This document shows positions 54,750 through 64,000 of a stretch of DNA of 64,000 nucleotides, piece after piece. The DNA comes from an uncultured cyanobacterium (lineage in GTDB: Bacteria > Cyanobacteriota > Cyanobacteriia > Cyanobacteriales > CAWUOF01), in NCBI GenBank assembly GCA_963744145.1, contig CAVUSO010000001.1, positions 1,376,001 to 1,440,000 on the forward strand. Direction: 5' to 3'. A program made the position numbers and the translations under genes. The stretch's first letter is position 1. Each line of letters opens with the position of its first letter. The notes under the pieces are model-generated. The model was not told the DNA's origin and made no database searches. It saw nothing but the letters and a program-made list of their open reading frames with translations.

Positions 54750-55325
54750 ATGACGACCATTACTGTTGACATCAATTCTGTCATTCACCTGACCGATGAG
54801 CAATATTTCCAACTTTGTCAAAATAATCGCAGCTTAAGATTTGAACGCAATGCTACCGGAGAATTAATTATTATGTCACCTACGGGAGGAGAAACTAGCA
54901 ACTGTAATGCTGGTTTAACTGCACAACTTTGGTTTTGGAATAAAAAAACTAAATTAGGTAAAGTTTTTGATTCTTCTGGTGGGTTTAAACTTCCTAATGG
55001 TGCCGATCGCTCTCCCGATGCAGCTTGGCTCAAATTAGAACGTTGGAATAGTTTAACCACAGAAGAACAAAAACGTTTTCCACCCTTATGTCCAGATTTT
55101 GTGGTGGAGTTACTTTCACCAAGCGATCGACTCCCAGATACCCAAGCAAAAATGGAGGAATATATTGCTAATGGTACTCGATTAGGATGGTTAATGATTC
55201 CTTCTGCTCGGAAAGTTGAAGTTTATCGACCAGGACAACCAGTGGAAATCTTAGCAGATCCAGTAAGTTTATCAGGGGAAGATGTTTTACCTGGATTTAG
55301 CTTAAATCTTGACCTAATTTGGTGA
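54750..55325 (+). CDS. Uma2 family endonuclease
   Basis: FDSSGGFKLPNGADRSPDAAW, PDFVVELLSPSD, GEDVLPGF. Confidence 0.9.
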   Translation: MTTITVDINSVIHLTDEQYFQLCQNNRSLRFERNATGELIIMSPTGGETSNCNAGLTAQLWFWNKKTKLGKVFDSSGGFKLPNGADRSPDAAWLKLERWNSLTTEEQKRFPPLCPDFVVELLSPSDRLPDTQAKMEEYIANGTRLGWLMIPSARKVEVYRPGQPVEILADPVSLSGEDVLPGFSLNLDLIW

Positions 55326-55850: not shown

Positions 55851-56444
55851 CTAGAGTAATGTTTTAAAATAAGTTGAAAATTTCTGAGATGGTACACCAA
55901 CCATCAAAGCAGATTCTTGGCGCAAATGAATTTCTACATCTCGTTGACGTTCGGTAAATAAACTAGCTTCTGATAAATGCCGGGAAGTCAGAAAATGAAT
56001 AGTTTGGTTAGCCGAACCGCGCCAACCTTTATTGTCATTTAGTTCCGGAATATATTGTCCGTCAATGAGAACATCAATTCTATTGAGAATTTGATCAATA
56101 GCTGGGTCTAATTTGCTTTGTAATTCCTGTAGTGTAAAACCCGTAAAACACATAATAGAAAGATCCCGATGCTGACGAAGATGGGTAAATAATTCGTTTA
56201 ATGCAGTTGCTTGTAACATTGGTTCACCGCCAGAAATTGTTATTCCATCAATGCCAGCAACTGATAAAATCTGATCAGCTAATTTTATTGGCTCGACTAA
56301 GGTAGCTTCTACCTGGGGAATCCATTCTGGGGAAATACATTCACGACAGCGAAAACAACAACCTTGCATCCAGATCACAAATCTTAGCCCTGGACCAAGA
56401 GTATAAGTAGTGGGACAGATTTCAGCAATATTGAGAAGAGTCAT
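55851..56444 (-). CDS. NrdG-like radical SAM (4Fe-4S) protein
   Basis: GPGLRFVIWMQGC, CxxxCxxC (CCFRCREC), ITISGGEP, DVLIDGQY, WRGSANQ. Confidence 0.85.
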   Translation of the reverse strand: MTLLNIAEICPTTYTLGPGLRFVIWMQGCCFRCRECISPEWIPQVEATLVEPIKLADQILSVAGIDGITISGGEPMLQATALNELFTHLRQHRDLSIMCFTGFTLQELQSKLDPAIDQILNRIDVLIDGQYIPELNDNKGWRGSANQTIHFLTSRHLSEASLFTERQRDVEIHLRQESALMVGVPSQKFSTYFKTLL

Positions 56445-56446
56445 AT

Positions 56447-57511
56447 TTACAAAGGGATACGATTTTTTTGTTGAGCTTGTTCGTGTTTAATTAGAGCTGT
56501 TGTTAATTCTTGGTCAATTTCTGCTAAATACTGTTGGATATTTTTGACTAATGAATCAACTTTTTGGCGGTCTACTGGCAATAGGGTTCCTAATGTCCGA
56601 TCGGAGTGATAATGGGTAGTTATAGCTGTGCGAATTTCGGCGGTTTCGGTTTGATATTTTTGGAAATCTTCTCGGCATTTTTGTAATTGTTGTTGAGCTT
56701 GATGATAAGATTCTTGTTGTTGGATTAATTCTGATCGTTGTTGTTCAATGGCAGCTAATTCTTTGGCTAAAGCTTCTGATAAACTCTGTCGTTGTACTTG
56801 GGTGAGATTTATTAATTCAGAAACAGAGCCGGAGATACTATTTTCTAGTCTATTTTGTCGGGACTGCCAATAGGTAATCTCTTCTTTGAGAGTAGTTTGC
56901 TGTCGTTGTAAAGCTCCTATTTGCTCATCCAGGTCTGCTTTTTGTTGTTGCAGTGATTTGAGAATTTCTCTTTGTGGTTCTAGTTCAGCAGATTGAGTAG
57001 CGATCGCTTGACGCAAATCTTCTAGGTTAGTTTCTTGCAATGCTGTTTGAATTTCTTGGAGTTGTCTAGCTTTTTCTTTTAATGTTTGTAGATTGGTATT
57101 GTCTTCATTTAACTGTTGTTCTTGACGCAGTAAGTTAGCTGCTGATTGAATTAGTTGGGATTTATCGTTGGCAATTTGTTGGATGGATGCAGTGCGATCG
57201 CTGATTTTCTGTTTGAGTGTTATTGGTACTGGTAATGTGTTCAGGTGAGGGAGCCAAGAATTGAGAATTTCGAGCTGGGTGTTGAGGGTTTTACTCAGAG
57301 CGATCGCCCAAGCGTCTAATGTCTCTGGGTCTACATTTGCCAGTTGTCCTAGCACTTCTGGATGAAAGGTAGATTCCCAAAGGTTTATTCCTGCTGCTAC
57401 TAATTCAAAAGGCAATTTAATAGTATCAAACTCGCTCAAGCTTATTGCTTGTTCTATTTTCTGCACTAAATTTTTAAGAGTTTGTAAATCCTGTTGCTGA
57501 TTTTGCTGCAT
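56447..57511 (-). CDS. Gln/Leu-rich coiled-coil protein
   Basis: Long heptad-rich ORF. Stop is 2 nt from the radical SAM start. ATG 57511 preceded by GAGGGA. Confidence 0.75.
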   Translation of the reverse strand: MQQNQQQDLQTLKNLVQKIEQAISLSEFDTIKLPFELVAAGINLWESTFHPEVLGQLANVDPETLDAWAIALSKTLNTQLEILNSWLPHLNTLPVPITLKQKISDRTASIQQIANDKSQLIQSAANLLRQEQQLNEDNTNLQTLKEKARQLQEIQTALQETNLEDLRQAIATQSAELEPQREILKSLQQQKADLDEQIGALQRQQTTLKEEITYWQSRQNRLENSISGSVSELINLTQVQRQSLSEALAKELAAIEQQRSELIQQQESYHQAQQQLQKCREDFQKYQTETAEIRTAITTHYHSDRTLGTLLPVDRQKVDSLVKNIQQYLAEIDQELTTALIKHEQAQQKNRIPL

Positions 57512-57563
57512 AAAATCCCTCAATCTATGTAATTAAGTGTTTCTTTGAACAAGTTAAACCTGA

Positions 57564-59174
57564 TTAGTTTTCTGAATTTTCCAGCAGGACGTAACCAGGA
57601 AACATTTTGGAAATAACATTACCTAGTTGATATTCAACTACTTTTCCTCCTCTGGCTTCTTGAATTAATAAATAAGCTATTTGAGACCGATCAACTTTCA
57701 TCCCAACATGATATTTAGCGTTAGTAGAATAGTTGGGTAATTCAATCATGTCGGGTAGAGATTCTTGGTGTTTATTACCTTTAGATAAAAGCTGGACCCA
57801 GAGAGTAATAGCAATGCGATTTTCAACAGGTACAATTGGTTCAGGATAAAATTTTGGTGGTGCTAAAGTATCTAAATTAATACCACCTTCGATCAGAGTA
57901 ATCTCTGGTCTTTCCCGTTTTCCTGTGTGAATATTGATTGTTTCTAACAAAATACCAATGGTATGAACATATTTTTCTGTAGGATCGACTAAACCGTTAG
58001 CAATTAGACAAGCACCATAAGATATAGCATAAGCGCTATTAGTAATATTAAAACTTTTGTCAAGCCGGGGGTCATTTCCACCAATCCCTAAAGCATCGGT
58101 AATGGCTTTTTGAACGAGGATAAACTGACTAAATCCACCTACCATAAAAATACGATCAATTTCCATTCTTTCTTTTTGGATGTAAGATTTAACTTTTTTA
58201 ATGACATCACAAATACCTTGGGTGATCGGAGTAAAAGCCTCGTTAACTTCTCCTAATGTGATTGTGTATTCATTAAATTTATAAGCTTCATCTTGGGCTT
58301 TGTCTTCTGGAGCATTTAGATAGTTAGTTAACCTTTTAGTAGCTCGATCGTGATGGTCAATTTTAATCTTTTCAAAAGCTTGGAGTAAACTAATAAATTC
58401 TGATGTGTTTTCAGCCAAAGGTTTACCATACTTTTTAGTGTAAGCTTGTTGGATGATGCGGCGATCGAAAGCTACTCCAGCAAATTCTAATCCTTGATCT
58501 CCTTGTCCATCAAAATAGAGAACCTCTACTTTATTGTCGCCATAAATCCGACAAAGACTAACATCAAAAGTGCCACCTCCCATATCACAAACGAGTAAGT
58601 TACCGCTAAAAGATTCACTACCTTTTTGTCTAGCACGCCGTTGCGTTTCCCAGGCATAATAGGCAGCAGCAGCAACAGGTTCACTGACAAGTTGGATGAG
58701 TTGATTTTCTAGTCTTAAGTCTTTTTTAATTAATTCTTGTAGACGTTCCCGACCTAAATTATAAATATCACGTTGCCAAATTTCTGGAACTGAGACAACA
58801 ATGCTAGTAATTTCACCTTTTTCACGGCTAAAACTGTAGGATTTTTCCACAGATATTAGCAGTTCACGCAGGTAATCAACGGTAACACTAATGGGGGTAC
58901 GAGGATGGGTAAAATATTTGCTAAACTCCGATTCTGGTAAGGGCAATCTCATTTTAAAATTGCCATAAGTTTCAACAGAAGAATCATGGGCAGCGGTACT
59001 GCGGGCAGCATTACCAATTGTGATCCCCTCTGATTCATAGGCAATGAAGGAGGGGATATATTTTTGTCCATCTGGTGGTGGATAGGGAAATACTTCAAGT
59101 TCTCCGTTGGGGGTAAGGTAGGAGATAATCGAGTTGGTAGTGCCGAAGTCTAGACCGATTTTGTAAGTTGGCAT
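57564..59174 (-). CDS. Atypical Hsp70-family ATPase
   Basis: GLDFGTTNS, SVP, EPVAAA, DMGGGTFD, VGGFS. C-terminus does not resemble canonical DnaK. ATG 59174 preferred as start. Confidence 0.85.
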   Translation of the reverse strand: MPTYKIGLDFGTTNSIISYLTPNGELEVFPYPPPDGQKYIPSFIAYESEGITIGNAARSTAAHDSSVETYGNFKMRLPLPESEFSKYFTHPRTPISVTVDYLRELLISVEKSYSFSREKGEITSIVVSVPEIWQRDIYNLGRERLQELIKKDLRLENQLIQLVSEPVAAAAYYAWETQRRARQKGSESFSGNLLVCDMGGGTFDVSLCRIYGDNKVEVLYFDGQGDQGLEFAGVAFDRRIIQQAYTKKYGKPLAENTSEFISLLQAFEKIKIDHHDRATKRLTNYLNAPEDKAQDEAYKFNEYTITLGEVNEAFTPITQGICDVIKKVKSYIQKERMEIDRIFMVGGFSQFILVQKAITDALGIGGNDPRLDKSFNITNSAYAISYGACLIANGLVDPTEKYVHTIGILLETINIHTGKRERPEITLIEGGINLDTLAPPKFYPEPIVPVENRIAITLWVQLLSKGNKHQESLPDMIELPNYSTNAKYHVGMKVDRSQIAYLLIQEARGGKVVEYQLGNVISKMFPGYVLLENSEN

Positions 59175-59306
59175 AATTATGTTAATTAACTGATCTATTG
59201 TATTATCCGAACAACAGCAATGCTTATCCCAGATTGCTGAAAACAGCTTCCGGACAGACTTGATCACAGCAAAATCCTGATCCACCTTATTCCTTACCTT
59301 GGACGA

Positions 59307-59336
59307 GTAGGGGCGCAAGAGATCTTGCGCCCCTAC
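59307..59336. repeat. GTAG-type REP hairpin
   Basis: GTAGGGGCGCAAGA-GA-TCTTGCGCCCCTAC, a perfect 14-bp stem. Confidence 0.8.
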
Positions 59337-59452
59337 CAATTATTGCTCGACTAGGTGGTTGGTCTGGCTATCGGTCTCAAAAACCGCCGGGAATTGCTAC
59401 CTTAGTGCGCGGAATACACAATCGCATCTACGATCCAGGGATTATTCTATTG

Positions 59453-59543
59453 GGCGTTGCTGATTTACGGTATGAATAAATAATTTGTAGGGGCATAAGG
59501 CCATACGCCCCGATTGATTTTCATACCCTGATTAAGCAACGCC
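59453..59543. mobile_element. 91-bp MITE (family B) with 8-bp TSD
   Basis: TIRs GGCGTTGCTGATTTACGGTATGAA / TTCATACCCTGATTAAGCAACGCC. Direct repeat TTCTATTG at 59445-59452 and 59544-59551. Internal GTAGGGGCAT...ACGCCCC hairpin. Confidence 0.88.
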
Positions 59544-59706
59544 TTCTATTGCAAAGGATTGAAAAATTTCCAAACTTAATGACGTTTGGCTGTTTGGCTT
59601 AAGTCCCCAATCAAGCATTTTATGAAGTTTTGTTACAAAATCTTTGGTTGACTAAGTAATTGTTGATATAAATATTTGTGTTATCTAATGAGAAAAGGAG
59701 AAACTC

Positions 59707-61170
59707 ATGTCTCGAACTCAATTAGAACTAAAATATATAAAATCTATACATGAAGCATTATATCCCCGTTGGGGTTGGAGTGGTGGATATATTATTGCTA
59801 ACGTTTTTGATAATGGTAAGAAAGTTGTATTAGAATGCTATGCAGAGCCTTCTCTAGAAGAATCTGCTATTCTGAGCGATAAAATACAGAATTGTTTAGA
59901 TACAGTTCCGGAAATTTTTTGGAAATTAATAGGTGGCAGAGATGAAATTAACCTGAAATTAATAAACGAAAGCAGCAGTCAAATAACAGTTAAAAGAAAT
60001 GTTCAAAAACCAGTTATTGAACAACCTTTTCAAACAAGTCTTCAACAACAAGTTACAACCGAAATTTCTAATTTATTAGATATAATTTACAAAAAAGCAG
60101 AGCAAGATATTGAAACTGTAAAAAGAATACAAGATTCTACAATTAACTACTTTTCTACAGCCAGTGATTCGGTAATTCAATGTAGTAAACAAGGAATTTA
60201 TTTTATTCAAAATAATTACACTCAAATAGTTGATGGAACTATTAAAGTTATTGAACCACTTAGACAAGAATTAATAAAATATCCTGATGATTGGCTGAGA
60301 AAACTTAATAAAGATACACTGGCAAAAGTAGATCAGGCTGAAAAAACTTTTTACATAATTAAAGAAAAAAACAAACATAAAAAAACAGATAAACTGGCTA
60401 CAGCTATAATTATTGAAAGTCTCAAGAAATCAACATTGGCTAGGTTTATAGATTCCGGAATATATGTGATTAGCTCATCATTGTTTGATATGCCTGATAA
60501 GTCATTGTCTGATTGCATTAAGCCATTGTCTGATTGGATTAAGTCTTTAGAAGATAAGAATTATCCTTTTCTAAATCAGATGATATTGATATCGGAAAAG
60601 ATAGATGAAGAAATAAGAAAAACGTTTGAACAACCAAAAACGTCAGATTTAATGCTGGCTATGATTGTTCAGATTGCTTGTGTTTATGAACGTGCAAACT
60701 TTCATTCCTCAGAAAAGCAAGCAGAATTAGTCTGTATTTTAATAATTTCATTTTTATGCAGTTTAGCTGTAGATATGGAATTTATAGATTTCTGCAAAAA
60801 GATTATCTCTAATCTAAATTTAGAACAAATTCTGCAAAAAATGGGAATAAGTTATGATAAAGATTTAATTAATAAAATTCAAAAAAATATCGCTCCTAAT
60901 AACAATTTGGTTAATCTTTTACAAAATTTCTTAGTTTCTATTAGTATGAATATAGCTCTTTTCTTGTTGGTTGGTTTTATTGCTAAATATATTTACCAAA
61001 ATTATGATAAGATTTTTGAAATTATAGGATCAATAAACTTATATAATCAAATCAAAGCCGAAGCTAGTAAGTCTGTTTTAGAAATAACACAAAAGACTAA
61101 CATTATTGAAAATGCTATTGTTGAATGCTATCAGACCGGAAAACTTACTAAGACTAGCGATCGCATCTAA
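59707..61170 (+). CDS. AT-rich hypothetical protein with hydrophobic C-terminal helices
   Basis: 487-aa ORF with strong RBS (AAGGAG). Opposite strand to its neighbours. No recognisable motif. Confidence 0.7.
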   Translation: MSRTQLELKYIKSIHEALYPRWGWSGGYIIANVFDNGKKVVLECYAEPSLEESAILSDKIQNCLDTVPEIFWKLIGGRDEINLKLINESSSQITVKRNVQKPVIEQPFQTSLQQQVTTEISNLLDIIYKKAEQDIETVKRIQDSTINYFSTASDSVIQCSKQGIYFIQNNYTQIVDGTIKVIEPLRQELIKYPDDWLRKLNKDTLAKVDQAEKTFYIIKEKNKHKKTDKLATAIIIESLKKSTLARFIDSGIYVISSSLFDMPDKSLSDCIKPLSDWIKSLEDKNYPFLNQMILISEKIDEEIRKTFEQPKTSDLMLAMIVQIACVYERANFHSSEKQAELVCILIISFLCSLAVDMEFIDFCKKIISNLNLEQILQKMGISYDKDLINKIQKNIAPNNNLVNLLQNFLVSISMNIALFLLVGFIAKYIYQNYDKIFEIIGSINLYNQIKAEASKSVLEITQKTNIIENAIVECYQTGKLTKTSDRI

Positions 61171-61221
61171 AGATGGGAATTTTAAAAAAACGCAAAAATA
61201 ATTTCTACCAAACTAAGATGT

Positions 61222-61410
61222 CTATTCAGACTGCGATCGCTTCCACATCCTAATCGCCCAATCTAGTTTTCCTCGTTCCTTCTCCAAAAAAGCTTCCGGC
61301 AATTGCCCAGGAAAAGTCAATGGATATGGCATCATATCCCATTCGCAAGTACAGCAGAAGCTTACCTGTCCTTCAACATATTCATTTTGACAAACCGGAC
61401 ACTGTACCAT
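61222..61410 (-). CDS. Short Zn-ribbon (CPVC...CCTC) ORF, probably a truncated N-terminal domain
   Basis: MVQCPVCQNEYVEGQVSFCCTCEWD..., preceded by GAGGA. Ends just after a HIP1 site. Confidence 0.5.
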   Translation of the reverse strand: MVQCPVCQNEYVEGQVSFCCTCEWDMMPYPLTFPGQLPEAFLEKERGKLDWAIRMWKRSQSE

Positions 61411-61613
61411 GTCTAATTCCTCACAAATCCAAACACAGTCCTCAACATTTCCCCCAACGCTGCTGAGAAGTCGGAGTGACAAATATTGCCACCCCGCTCG
61501 CAGATAGGTCGGAAAATCTCGGATAACTCCTCACCAGGATAATTGCTAAATTCGATTTTGTATATCCTGATGCTCCTCTATTCCTGTTAAATTTCTTCTT
61601 ATGCTAACAAATC

Positions 61614-62777
61614 TTAAAACTCTTGTACCGAATTCACAGTAATAGAGCGTTTGAGCAGTCGTTTCAGCAGGGTTAAATCCCTTATGGCAAAAAGCCTATT
61701 TCTTATGGTATCTGGTACGACGGAAAACCGCGTTTCCAAAATATCAATGATAGCTTCACGCGCAATTTCCAATTTTGCATCTCGCTCAAAACTGCTCATG
61801 TATGGCTGTCTTTCTTGCTCCATTCTTCTCAATCTTTGAGCATCTTCGCTCTGGCTTTCTGACAGCCGTTGTACAAATTCTTCTACAGATGCTACCGTTA
61901 CTGCCGGGACTAGCAATTCTTCGATCAATTCCAAATTCCCGATCTGATTAATTCTTTCAATCAAATCCGTTGGCACGACTGAAAACCGCGTTTCCAGAAC
62001 TTTGATAGCAGATTTGCGAGCAATTTCCAATTTTCCATCCCGTTCAAAACTAATCATGTATGACATTCGTCTTTGCTCCTCTATTTGCTTGATTTCCGTT
62101 TTAAACTCTTGCTGAATTGCCTCTGGTAAAACCATGATCCATTCAATGAACCGGAGCAGCTCCGATATCTGATTTCTACTATAACCCCGTTGGTAAAGTC
62201 GGCGCACTAAGCTTAACTTTGACTGGAAACGTTGCTCTAAATCGTTGCGTGTTGCCTGGGTTTCTAAATGAGCCGCGATAATTGTAGCAAAGGGATTGGT
62301 GCTTTCTGCTAGGATAGAAGCTGGATAGTCAAGTAGTTTCACAACTGGAAACTGCAAATTGCTCTCAAATCCCCATCGACTATAACTATATCCGGTTGGT
62401 CGCCAATTCCTATTTTCGTCTCCTAATATTGCAAAACTGAACACTTTTTGCCGATAGCGATCAAACAATCTATGATTGTAGATATACATCCGTTCGGCAA
62501 AATCTAACTGCTCTTGTCCTTGGATTTCGACGTGAATTAATACCAGGGCATCTTCACCTGAATTCAACCATACCTTTATTAGCTTATCTGCTAAACGTCT
62601 CCCGGTTTCGGCATCACGAATCAGTTCTTGCAATTCGGTATCTAAGGTTTCATATCCTCTCTCCCAATTAATATCACTGTGAACAGCGGGAAAACAAAAA
62701 GCCATAAATGCTTCAAAATAGATAGTGAGTGCTTCTTTCCAAGCACTATCGTAATCCGATCGCAGTTCTTCTACCAT
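61614..62777 (-). CDS. Rpn/YhgA-related PD-(D/E)xK nuclease-like protein with duplicated C-terminal domain
   Basis: DYDSAWKEAL, LADKLIKV, IHVEIQ, FAERMYIYN, NPFA. Two 86-aa-period repeats (YMxSFERDxKLEIAR...LETRFSVVP). Confidence 0.8.
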   Translation of the reverse strand: MVEELRSDYDSAWKEALTIYFEAFMAFCFPAVHSDINWERGYETLDTELQELIRDAETGRRLADKLIKVWLNSGEDALVLIHVEIQGQEQLDFAERMYIYNHRLFDRYRQKVFSFAILGDENRNWRPTGYSYSRWGFESNLQFPVVKLLDYPASILAESTNPFATIIAAHLETQATRNDLEQRFQSKLSLVRRLYQRGYSRNQISELLRFIEWIMVLPEAIQQEFKTEIKQIEEQRRMSYMISFERDGKLEIARKSAIKVLETRFSVVPTDLIERINQIGNLELIEELLVPAVTVASVEEFVQRLSESQSEDAQRLRRMEQERQPYMSSFERDAKLEIAREAIIDILETRFSVVPDTIRNRLFAIRDLTLLKRLLKRSITVNSVQEF

Positions 62778-62821
62778 ATAGTAACCTTCTACTCCTCTAA
62801 TTGATTGTAAAAAGACATCAC

Positions 62822-64000
62822 TTAACCCTCCCAATCTAGTATATCCTCTAACTTAAATGTCTTCATTGCATCCCCAGTTAAATTATCTCGTACAATTCGA
62901 TTTTTTAGTCGGGCCACTGTTTTTTCGTAAAAATTACGCACCTCTCTAGCATTACCAAAATTTCTCCCTTTATTTTGATACATTTTCTGAAAAATTTCCC
63001 GCAAACGTGCTGATACTTCTGGGGTAACAATCCACCCAGATTTCTGACACAGATTGATAAAAATTTGGGACAATTCATTATCATTATAGTCGGGAAATTC
63101 AATCTTGTAGGCAATTCGGGAAGCGATCCCGGAGTTAGCAGAGATAAACTGTTCCATTTCACGGGAATATCCTGCTAAAATAACTACTAGGCGATCGCGT
63201 TCGTTTTCCATAACTGGTACTAAAGTATCGATCGCTTCTCGCCCAAAATCCCACTGAGCTTCACCTTGTCGAGACAGAGCATAAGCTTCATCAATAAACA
63301 ACACTCCATCCAAAGCAGATTGAATTGCTTCCGCAGTTTTCAGTGCTGTTTGTCCTACATATCCAGCTACTAATTTTTCTCTATTTACTTCGATAAATTG
63401 TCCTTTTTGTAATAACCCCAACGCCTTAAAAATTTGTCCAATTAATCGCGCTATTGTAGTTTTTCCCGTTCCAGGATTTCCAGTAAATAACAGATGTCGT
63501 GTTTCTATTTCCTCCTTAGTTTGCATTCCTGCTTCCCGCAGACGTTGATTGGCAATTTGAGTATTAACGATTTCCCGAATCGCTTGTTTTACTGAATGCA
63601 ACCCAATCATCTGATCTAATTCTTGCAATAATTTCTGTAAAATTTCCTCATTTTTTCTTCCCTCTTGACGATACTGAGTAGGCAAATCTACTATTTGAAA
63701 AGGTTCTCGTAACGGATCAAGATTCTGTTCAACAACTCGCTGACTTCGCCGCTCATCTATCTGGTTAAACAAATTTTCTACTAACCCAGCATTTCCGAAA
63801 TTCTGGTCGCGTCTTTCATAAAGCTGAGTAAACAAATTCCTTAGCACTTCTGTCAATTCGGGTGTAATTGAACACTGCACTCGCGATACTCGTTGTTGAA
63901 AAATTGCTAATAATTCGGCAGGGGTATAATCTTCAAAAATAATTTCATTAGCAAAGCGACGATTTAACCCAGGATTTGAGTTAATAAAATCTTCCATCTG
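62822..64000 (-). CDS. Multi-module CbbX/SpoVK-type AAA+ ATPase; 5'-truncated by the window edge
   Basis: End of one AAA module (SNPGLNRRF...FGNAGLVEN) followed by a full module (GNPGTGKT, FIDEAY, LAGY, FGNAREVRN). Confidence 0.9.
   Translation of the reverse strand, partial: QMEDFINSNPGLNRRFANEIIFEDYTPAELLAIFQQRVSRVQCSITPELTEVLRNLFTQLYERRDQNFGNAGLVENLFNQIDERRSQRVVEQNLDPLREPFQIVDLPTQYRQEGRKNEEILQKLLQELDQMIGLHSVKQAIREIVNTQIANQRLREAGMQTKEEIETRHLLFTGNPGTGKTTIARLIGQIFKALGLLQKGQFIEVNREKLVAGYVGQTALKTAEAIQSALDGVLFIDEAYALSRQGEAQWDFGREAIDTLVPVMENERDRLVVILAGYSREMEQFISANSGIASRIAYKIEFPDYNDNELSQIFINLCQKSGWIVTPEVSARLREIFQKMYQNKGRNFGNAREVRNFYEKTVARLKNRIVRDNLTGDAMKTFKLEDILDWEG

Follow-up and report, generated by a model that had tools for sequence, protein, structure and literature searches.

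A cyanobacterial gene cluster encoding an Hsp70 homologue, a tandem AAA+ ATPase and an NrdG-like radical-SAM enzyme: a candidate conflict system

Gene content and conservation of the cluster

The 64-kb window of DNA that we analysed (G000:C1:1376001-1440000, from an uncultured cyanobacterium; coordinates prefixed C1 below refer to the same contig) contains, at one end, genes encoding an Hsp70 that is predicted to lack a lid, a coiled-coil protein (CC358), an NrdG-like radical S-adenosylmethionine enzyme (rSAM), a Zn-ribbon open reading frame (ORF) and a tandem AAA+ ATPase, which we consider to be parts of a candidate conflict system. All of the ORFs described in an initial annotation of the window were confirmed in the sequence. 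The extent of the system, by contrast with that annotation, is about twice as large and reaches past the window: the whole cluster occupies approximately window positions 55851 to 70449, so that the genes first described make up its downstream half only. The genes are as follows.

55851-56444, minus strand: NrdG-like radical-SAM enzyme (rSAM), orphan, 197 amino acids (aa)
56447-57523, minus strand: coiled-coil protein CC358, 358 aa, no Pfam family
57564-59174, minus strand: predicted lidless Hsp70, 536 aa, PF00012; the open frame reaches 59339
59707-61170, plus strand: orphan ORF, 487 aa, no Pfam, NCBIfam or PADLOC family
61222-61482, minus strand: Zn-ribbon ORF, 86 aa, the tag alone (domain at 61225-61419)
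61614-62834, minus strand: Rpn-like multi-copy gene, 406 aa, no Pfam or NCBIfam match
62822-64000 and beyond, minus strand: tandem CbbX/SpoVK/EccA-type AAA+ ATPase, C-terminal 392 aa of 851 aa
continuing to C1:1441377, minus strand: remainder of the ATPase gene, beyond the window
C1:1441555-1444014: Zn-ribbon dynamin (ZnR-dynamin), 819 aa, upstream of the ATPase, outside the window
C1:1443995-1445500: second coiled-coil protein (CC501), 501 aa, overlapping the dynamin gene by 20 nt
C1:1445973-1446449: GUN4 protein, 158 aa, upstream of CC501

The genes for the Hsp70, CC358 and the rSAM are tightly packed, as first described: 2 nt separate the rSAM and CC358 genes, and 52 nt separate the Hsp70 stop codon from the first ATG of CC358 (40 nt if CC358 starts at a TTG). 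The Zn-ribbon ORF and the tandem ATPase gene are oriented as this trio is, all on the minus strand, and are parted from it by two ORFs, namely the 487-aa ORF on the plus strand and the 406-aa Rpn-like gene. A family scan of the ORFs of the locus revealed no DnaJ, GrpE or NrdD family, in agreement with the initial annotation.

With an alignment of 20 Hsp70 relatives we retrieved 79 loci from a one-genome-per-species collection and searched their ORFs by phmmer and jackhmmer; 72 of these loci have an orthologous Hsp70 (E < 1e-40). Of the other families, CC358 was found in 43 of the 72, the rSAM in 35, the tandem ATPase in 29, a Zn-ribbon protein in 28 and CC501 in 26, and all five core families (Hsp70, CC358, rSAM, CC501 and tandem ATPase) were found together in 20. 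According to their record titles, the complete sets are spread over four phyla (12 in cyanobacteria, 3 in Chloroflexota, 3 in Acidobacteriota and 2 in Desulfobacterota), and a Psychrobacter locus has four of the five families together with an unassigned 286-aa ORF at the position of CC358. Many of the 72 loci are short contigs; among the 22 whose flanks extend for 8 kb or more in each direction, 11 have the genes for the rSAM, CC501 and the ATPase, and 12 have that for CC358. The genes of the locus thus do co-occur in other genomes.

Gene order, counted in 74 related loci (L010-L083), is conserved as well. The upstream neighbour of the rSAM gene is CC358 in 30 of 35 cases, and that of CC358 is the Hsp70 gene in 38 of 46; downstream of CC358 lies the rSAM gene on the same strand in 30 of 46 cases and on the opposite strand in 2 more. 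Because the rSAM-CC358 and CC358-Hsp70 neighbourhoods are kept in this way, the arrangement is not one of chance. Of 27 CC501 genes, 12 have the ATPase gene directly after them and 7 have a Zn-ribbon gene there. Two linked modules therefore recur, [lidless Hsp70-CC358-rSAM] and [CC501-tandem CbbX-type AAA+], in one of two arrangements: CC501-(ZnR-X)-AAA-(ZnR-X)n-Hsp70-CC358-rSAM, or, in Chloroflexota, Psychrobacter and a Calothrix plasmid, Hsp70-CC358-rSAM-CC501-AAA.

The system is sparsely distributed. Among 301 genomes drawn evenly from the phylum, an Hsp70 orthologue was present in 12 and an rSAM orthologue (E <= 1.7e-58) in 8; both were present in 7, in 5 of which they lie 1 to 4 kb apart, and one genome had the rSAM only. 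The plasmid mentioned above, which is mobilizable and 56 kb in size, comes from Calothrix sp. PCC 6303. The set on it is compact (Hsp70-TPR-rSAM-CC501-like-AAA+) and lies beside ParA/ParB and integrase genes, and RefSeq names its products 'Hsp70 family protein', '4Fe-4S single cluster domain-containing protein', 'AAA family ATPase' and 'hypothetical protein'. No relative of the Hsp70 was found at 1e-20 among 50,697 phage records. One further locus, L054, in a metagenome-assembled genome (MAG) labelled Crocinitomicaceae, has ZnR-GUN4 fusions and core genes 52-65% identical to cyanobacterial ones; the contig may, instead of being a Bacteroidota copy, be cyanobacterial DNA that was binned wrongly.

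The core proteins and the Zn-ribbon tag

The rSAM belongs to the activase-like Fer4_12 group. In particular, it matches Pfam Fer4_12 (PF13353) at 1.9e-30 (106.4 bits against a cut-off of 22), and it carries the CX3CX2C motif (C29/C33/C36) and the GGE(P) SAM motif (G72-G73-E74-P75), both of which are invariant in 24 orthologues; these features, a small Fer4_12-type rSAM with CX3CX2C and GGEP, are shared with the glycyl-radical activases NrdG and PflA. A C-terminal extension of approximately 45 residues is also conserved, with R168, E171 and G183 invariant. The best NCBIfam model is that of NrdG (TIGR02491), against which the enzyme scores 94.2 bits (7.1e-27), under the equivalog cut-off of 126.1, and it likewise falls under every other equivalog cut-off of the activase models. 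The nearest solved structure is that of the pyruvate formate-lyase-activating enzyme (PFL-AE; 3c8f, 1.3e-13). PFL-AE has an Asp in its DGPGIR stretch, whereas the rSAMs of the system have, in our alignment, an invariant Leu at that position. This Asp of PFL-AE has a role in peptide binding. Unlike NrdG and PflA, moreover, the rSAM of the system is linked to AAA+ ATPases (and is once fused with one), and occurs in a genome with no glycyl-radical enzyme: searches of the whole genome, which is 96.3% complete, gave 0 matches to NrdD (PF13597) and 0 to Gly_radical (PF01228), when the same searches matched 6 and 3, respectively, of 14 control genomes. The initial annotation had called the enzyme an orphan, and we indeed found no unpartnered nrdD elsewhere in the genome.

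Whether the rSAM groups with true NrdG was examined in a quick IQ-TREE search of 99 sequences, including relatives from 80 taken from IMG/VR contigs, 30 of which adjoin an NrdD gene (Pfam match of the cluster representative, 4.8e-197). One branch, with an SH-like approximate likelihood-ratio test (SH-aLRT) value of 85, has on one side the 24 rSAMs of the system together with 7 that are linked to a ClpB-like ATPase and 1 linked to a CbbX-type ATPase, and on the other side all 29 distinct NrdD-linked rSAMs. The enzyme therefore does not group with NrdD-linked rSAMs in this tree. No orthologue of it was found in IMG/VR, where the best match is 39% identical. The genome encodes a third NrdG-like rSAM (L009 7585-8355; G000:C1:3593585-3594355), which is followed by two small ORFs of 91 and 93 aa that we take, from their look, to be of the BrnT/BrnA toxin-antitoxin kind. 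Across the 301 sampled genomes, 114, many of them of approximately 2 Mb, have an rSAM paralogue of some type at E <= 1e-20, and most of these matches resemble the third rSAM (33-40% identity to the rSAM of the cluster).

The Hsp70 matches PF00012 at 5.2e-22 (78.2 bits against a cut-off of 20.6) and scores approximately 76 bits against DnaK models whose cut-offs are 648-822. Its start was placed at the ATG at 59174 because its relatives are approximately 535 aa long. Residues D9, G11, T12, T13, K74, E165, D197, G199-T202, G346 and G347 are invariant in 20 sequences, and we take these, by their correspondence to DnaK, to be ATPase-site positions (phosphate-binding and catalytic). An AlphaFold2 (AF2) model of the protein (predicted local distance difference test (pLDDT) 86, predicted template-modelling score (pTM) 0.86) aligned with DnaK in the ATP state (7krv_B) with Z 29.7 and a root-mean-square deviation (rmsd) of 5.2 Å over 441 residues (3-518 to 2-502), and with 4b9q_A with Z 28.8 (3-522 to 2-505); the nucleotide-binding domain (NBD) by itself aligned with those of DnaK and Hsc70 with Z 26-28. 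According to the model, the protein consists of an NBD and a beta substrate-binding domain (SBD), and the helical lid appears to be absent, since the model ends at the match to DnaK residue ~505. Taken together, the protein is a member of the Hsp70 family that departs from canonical DnaK/HscA in its score, in its predicted want of a lid and in its lack of DnaJ and GrpE partners among the ORFs of the locus. Its neighbour CC358 has weak matches to SMC, Rad50, JetC and LmuB models, which we read as probably reflecting coiled-coil composition.

The ATPase (851 aa) comprises an N-terminal region of approximately 340 aa and two AAA modules. The part within the window matches AAA_lid_6 at 1.2e-24 (86.5 bits against 24.3) and AAA at 1.2e-19. 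Both modules bear GNPGTGKT and VLFIDEA, at least two Walker A and at least two Walker B motifs are present in the query and in all 28 relatives of at least 700 aa, and both modules, judged by these motifs, look active. The full protein exceeds the total-score cut-off for SpoVK (516.8 against 422.95) and is below those for EccA and CbbX; because the SpoVK score is the sum over two modules, we class the protein as of the CbbX/SpoVK/EccA type and as an equivalog of none of these.

CC501 belongs to no family and has no PADLOC match, and its nearest Atlas clusters are unnamed hypothetical proteins. The N-terminal part of its AF2 model (pLDDT 77.9, pTM 0.51) is a long pair of helices, which a confidently modelled helical bundle (~182-385) and a small C-terminal alpha/beta domain (~385-465) follow; a search with VIA-align 2 gave generic helical-bundle matches only, the best at Z 11.0, within a range that is common for helical models.

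The 86-aa Zn-ribbon ORF is 63% identical to the N-terminus of the ZnR-dynamin encoded upstream, the body of which is a dynamin-family GTPase (Dynamin_N, 3.5e-18; PADLOC LeoBC, 3.2e-14, 51 bits). The domain has approximately 60 residues and four invariant Cys (CxxC...CxxC-G-W), and is followed by a conserved Y-P-x-T-F/P-E-x-F-L-x-K-E segment and then by a coiled coil. Loci have one to four Zn-ribbon proteins, and 23 of the 37 that we collected have a recognised C-terminal domain, which varies: by Pfam, GUN4 in 11, WD40 in 3, FGE-sulfatase in 3, TPR in 2, dynamin in 2, pentapeptide in 1 and Lcl_C in 1, the remaining 14 having a coiled coil only or nothing recognised. When five genomes that carry the system were searched for the Zn ribbon (strong matches only), most matches lay close to the Hsp70 gene. 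The genome studied here has two matches, both within the cluster and at distances of 2 and 9 kb from the Hsp70 gene; in a second, four intact matches lie inside ~6 kb of the Hsp70 gene with broken pieces between them; a third has a single strong match 6 kb away; and in the fourth and fifth the best match is at most 7 kb away, with a second strong one elsewhere in each. (A dynamin paralogue at G000:C1:3052939-3055167, 54% identical to residues 81-819 of the ZnR-dynamin, does not have the tag.) On these sequences, the Zn ribbon is a system-specific N-terminal tag with swappable C-terminal domains.

Six cyanobacterial loci (L011 5541-9994; L012, L013, L018, L035 and L041) have an extra sub-module directly upstream of the main Hsp70 gene, made up of a ZnR-coiled-coil protein (~300 aa), a divergent second Hsp70 (~585 aa, PF00012 at 1.4e-13) and a protein of ~500-610 aa that belongs to no family. 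We also considered that the 86-aa ORF might be a degraded longer gene. When 47 ZnR proteins, the p610 proteins and the second-Hsp70 proteins were used as tblastn queries, the Zn-ribbon domain alone was matched, with no C-terminal remnant downstream; the ORF is either the stub of a ZnR-X gene or a stand-alone tag.

Fusions, related clusters and flanking genes

Several fusion proteins, each of them one record or one cluster in a large protein collection, contain core domains of the system. A 483-aa protein (P0121) has an rSAM of this clade (47% identical) and a CbbX-type AAA module in one chain. The Hsp70 is joined to a CHAT caspase-like domain in a 1123-aa protein (P0123; 40% identical over 94% of the Hsp70's length), to a NERD domain in a 770-aa protein (P0091; 48% identical) and to a GerE helix-turn-helix domain in a 702-aa protein. 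Through these fusions the rSAM is connected with the AAA+ ATPase, and the Hsp70 with domains of effector type.

The rSAM, a CC501-type protein and an AAA+ ATPase form a recurring triad. The same genome has a paralogous cluster (L008 7808-16000; G000:C1:1285808-1294000) in the order rSAM-CC437-ClpB-like AAA+ (661 aa)-vWA-FHA-PP2C-Ser/Thr kinase, in which the NrdG-like rSAM is 42% identical to that of the cluster described here and the 437-aa CC437 is homologous to the C-terminal half of CC501 (BLASTP 3e-6). This paralogous cluster is like the rSAM-bearing FtsH-type ternary systems of Kaur et al. 2020, with no MoxR seen. The C-terminal stretch of its kinase looks GUN4-like by eye. Further triads of rSAM, coiled coil and AAA+ occur on IMG/VR contigs, with a CbbX-type ATPase in L102, a ClpB-like ATPase in 6 loci and a 620-aa AAA protein in 8. 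L102 (7980-16496), a contig that is classed as viral, encodes an rSAM (39% identical), two CC501-like proteins and a 1203-aa CbbX-type AAA+ protein of three modules; it may be host DNA, since a gene for a P-type cation ATPase is nearby.

Effector-type and defence genes occur near the relatives of the locus. Trypsin-like genes are present in 10 loci and CHAT-TPR genes in 8, of which two, from Acidobacteriota, have the CHAT-TPR gene immediately behind that of the rSAM. In 23 loci, 125 flanking ORFs outside the core reach 150 aa, and all but 2, which were excluded because of their size, were compared with PADLOC; 13 of these 123, in 8 of the loci, have a match at E <= 1e-10. In one Chloroflexota locus the matches, which lie immediately upstream, are to type I restriction-modification subunits, PtuA and PDC-M01B. 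Others are a TIR protein, caspases, a single TnpB-like gene and an SNF2 helicase accompanied by a methylase.

In the genome studied here, MacB-type and HlyD-type pump genes come after the GUN4 gene, and genes for a Uma2 endonuclease, a beta-lactamase-fold protein, an M48 peptidase and AspRS lie on the opposite side of the cluster. The Uma2-family putative endonuclease gene (54750-55325, plus strand; PF05685, 2.4e-47) is 525 nt past the rSAM gene; Uma2 genes are common in cyanobacteria, and we saw no tie to the system.

The stretch between the ATPase and Hsp70 genes has probably been rearranged by insertions, since the Zn-ribbon stub has the orphan ORF on one side and, on the other, a gene that gave 13 tblastn matches in the genome. 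The orphan 487-aa ORF has no relative in the 79 related loci and no usable Atlas match, and the block 60001-62000 has a GC content of 33.5% against 39.4% for the chromosome; the ORF lies outside the conserved system and is probably an insertion, being either a recent one or not a gene. It has a hydrophobic C-terminal segment. The 406-aa gene has 13 tblastn matches in the genome and relatives in just 3 of the 79 loci, and is probably a mobile insertion between the ATPase gene and the Zn-ribbon ORF. (Note that 'Rpn-like' is the sequence type to which we presume it to belong, with no family match behind the name.) Its product has a duplicated C-terminal repeat of approximately 65 residues. A 327-aa relative (6e-87) is encoded between the AAA+ and Hsp70 genes of a Desulfobacteraceae MAG locus (L060), the same position as here, which would be odd for an unrelated insertion.

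With a cyanobacterial LexA-box consensus (RGTACNNNDGTWCB) that we take to be the relevant one, allowing 1 mismatch, 5 matches were found in 20 kb against 3.9 expected, all of them inside ORFs. LexA control is thus not supported.

Comparison with known systems and interpretation

In its plan the locus resembles the NTP-dependent ternary conflict systems of Kaur, Burroughs, Iyer and Aravind (eLife 2020; PMC7159879), which, in that paper's account of them, have a chaperone-type NTPase core, a shared adaptor domain and swappable domains, the same plan as is seen here. The variable domains mentioned there include FGS, GUN4, repeats, caspase-like and trypsin domains, and the FtsH subsystem described there has an AAA+ protein of two modules as well as 'a distinctive radical SAM domain'; the closest match among the systems it describes is to the FtsH-type vWA-MoxR subsystem and the GTPase/Hsp70 systems. 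The locus differs from these in that no MoxR or vWA family occurs among its ORFs, in that both AAA+ modules have Walker A and B motifs whereas the first module of the FtsH subsystem is described as inactive, in that its AAA+ protein is of the CbbX/SpoVK type, and in that its adaptor is a Zn ribbon and none of the effector-associated domains (EADs) seen in that account. The terms 'CbbX', 'SpoVK', 'EccA' and 'dynamin' have 0 occurrences in the main text of PMC7159879, the supplements of which could list such neighbourhoods.

Also akin are the type III CoCoNuT systems (Bell et al., eLife 2024; PMC11090510), portrayed there as having an Hsp70-like protein with an NBD and SBD (CnuD), extensive coiled coils and sometimes a tandem SpoVK-family AAA+ protein. 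The locus here, however, lacks a HEPN domain as well as any GTPase or nuclease resembling McrB or McrC, and whereas CnuD is described as having degenerate Walker A-like motifs, the putative ATPase-site residues of the Hsp70 here are invariant. The word 'Radical' has 0 occurrences in PMC11090510. With respect to Eleos (LeoBC/LeoA), the ZnR-dynamin alone matches LeoBC (3.2e-14), dynamin being the C-terminal domain of 2 of the 37 Zn-ribbon proteins, and there is no relative of Eleos in the core of the system. Other weak or generic PADLOC matches are to pVip (1e-4) and, for an AAA module, to IetA (1.8e-18). In short, features by which NrdG, canonical DnaK, the vWA-MoxR/FtsH ternary systems and each of the PADLOC systems are defined are lacking in the gene set. 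The initial annotation knew of no functional description; supplements aside, we found no full-text paper that joins an Hsp70, a radical-SAM enzyme and a CbbX/SpoVK-type AAA+ protein.

We estimate at about 0.5 the probability that the locus is one copy of a conserved, horizontally mobile multi-gene conflict system, of the anti-invader or cell-suicide type. In favour of it are the recurrence of the core families in a kept order, the patchy distribution and plasmid carriage, the variable domains joined to one tag, the fusions, the effector-type and defence genes among the neighbours, and the paralogous rSAM cluster together with the place of the AAA+-linked rSAMs in the tree. The proposed logic is that of the NTPase-threshold systems of Kaur et al. 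2020, with which the locus shares its variable domains. Of the two associations that the initial annotation had raised, conflict is the likeliest class, and nothing points to secretion. Its broader proposal, of a dedicated system in which the rSAM acts on a non-canonical substrate, stands, given that the genes co-occur, that there is no nrdD and that the rSAM falls apart from the NrdD-linked ones, and we infer for the system a function in remodelling or modification.

In such a conflict system, the Zn-ribbon-tagged proteins would be sensors or scaffolds that dock onto the core, where a threshold would be set by the Hsp70 and the AAA+ ATPase, acting as switches or unfoldases driven by nucleotides. 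The Hsp70, which CC358 constantly accompanies, may hold or release a peptide segment, for which the conserved segment behind the Zn ribbon is a candidate, and the tandem ATPase may, with CC501, unfold or disassemble a protein. The rSAM, which keeps the architecture of a glycyl-radical activase with no such enzyme to activate, might work with the ATPase to abstract a hydrogen atom from a presented protein (CC501, a tagged protein or an invader protein being candidate targets), such that the protein is modified or broken. In some lineages a CHAT protease or NERD domain would add to or replace this output. An analogy may be drawn with the AAA+ proteases FtsH and Lon, in which an AAA+ unfoldase is joined to an enzyme that acts on polypeptides, much as one relative here fuses an rSAM with an AAA+ module; the partner enzyme here would be a radical-SAM enzyme and not a peptidase, and threading of a substrate is purely an analogy.

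Glycyl-radical activases abstract a backbone hydrogen atom of a protein. A more specific and decidedly speculative version of the conflict reading, which we think improbable, is that of a 'radical unfoldase', in which the AAA+ ring and the lidless Hsp70 would unfold or expose a target from which the rSAM abstracts a backbone hydrogen, immunity or suicide being brought about by radicals that attack proteins and not by nucleases, proteases or NADases. In an oxygen-evolving cell such abstraction might lead to backbone scission or cross-linking, and the Zn-ribbon tag would recruit interchangeable sensors.

Several findings weigh against a conflict system. No toxic effector is recognised in this copy, the variable domains of which are of binding or scaffold types; its flanks are housekeeping genes (AspRS, M48 peptidase, MacB/HlyD pump); and GUN4 could point instead to tetrapyrrole physiology. 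The core proteins match no system in PADLOC-DB v2.0.0 beyond generic AAA+ or dynamin similarity, and the fold of CC501 is uninformative, Foldseek giving no match at E <= 0.001 (best 0.076). The count of PADLOC matches in the flanks comes without a background control, so the defence genes there are suggestive only. The fusion of an rSAM with an AAA module is a single record. The tree was a quick search in which the key branch has an SH-aLRT of 85 and not 95, so that support for the separation of the rSAM from NrdG is moderate. Finally, in 8 of the 22 fully flanked loci the Hsp70 occurs without the other four core families, and 5 of the 12 sampled genomes with the Hsp70, all in one family-level group, have no orthologous rSAM, from which it follows that the modules can work apart. 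In three of the genomes with the Hsp70 alone, an rSAM that is 67-68% identical is encoded on another contig, near CC358 in the two examined; the modules can thus also be split.

Of three alternatives to a conflict system, an unlikely one, in our estimation, is that the genes encode a machine for protein maturation or quality control with no role in conflict, in which the Hsp70 and the AAA+ ATPase unfold or assemble a client that the rSAM modifies, and for which the GUN4, WD40 and TPR proteins would be client adaptors responding, for example, to tetrapyrrole or photosynthesis status. The parts of the core, all of which are of chaperone or maturase families, would suit such a machine, as would GUN4 as the commonest tagged domain (11 of 37), the housekeeping flanks, the want of a toxic effector in this copy and the core's lack of a PADLOC match. 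However, the system is present in only 12 of the 301 genomes sampled, it is also present in non-photosynthetic phyla, where FGE or other domains replace GUN4, it is carried by a plasmid, and its Hsp70 is fused to CHAT and NERD domains; fast swapping of the tagged domains, and their duplication within a locus, are moreover atypical of housekeeping maturases.

Less probable still is that the genes serve a mobile element and not the immunity of the host, whether by maintaining a plasmid or phage, through addiction or in counter-defence. The set that lies beside ParA/ParB and integrase genes on a mobilizable plasmid, and the triads of rSAM, coiled coil and AAA+ on IMG/VR contigs, are consistent with such a role. 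Most copies, however, are chromosomal, the Hsp70 is unmatched in the 50,697 phage records, and L102, with its P-type ATPase gene, may be host DNA; since defence systems ride plasmids too, plasmid carriage does not discriminate between a mobile-element function and a host conflict system. That the rSAM is an ordinary NrdG, serving an anaerobic ribonucleotide reductase encoded elsewhere and adjoining chaperone genes by chance, is suggested by its best NCBIfam model (7.1e-27) but is highly improbable and already contradicted by its score (94.2 bits against a cut-off of 126.1), by the absence of NrdD and Gly_radical matches in a 96.3% complete genome (controls 6 and 3 of 14), by its conserved linkage to CC358 and Hsp70 and by its separation from NrdD-linked rSAMs in the tree.

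If the conflict reading is correct, the locus would represent a widely dispersed, plasmid-borne candidate immune system built of parts that have never been shown to work together, namely a lidless Hsp70, a doubly active tandem AAA+ ATPase and an orphan homologue of the glycyl-radical activases. It would give a handle on the unexplained recurrent pairing of an NrdG-like rSAM with a coiled-coil protein and an AAA+ ATPase, a pairing that occurs in at least two paralogous forms in this genome, on IMG/VR contigs and in one fused chain. It would also explain the presence of activase-like genes in organisms without a glycyl-radical enzyme, oxygenic cyanobacteria included, and the Zn-ribbon tag would serve both as a marker with which to find further members of the system and as an experimental entry point.

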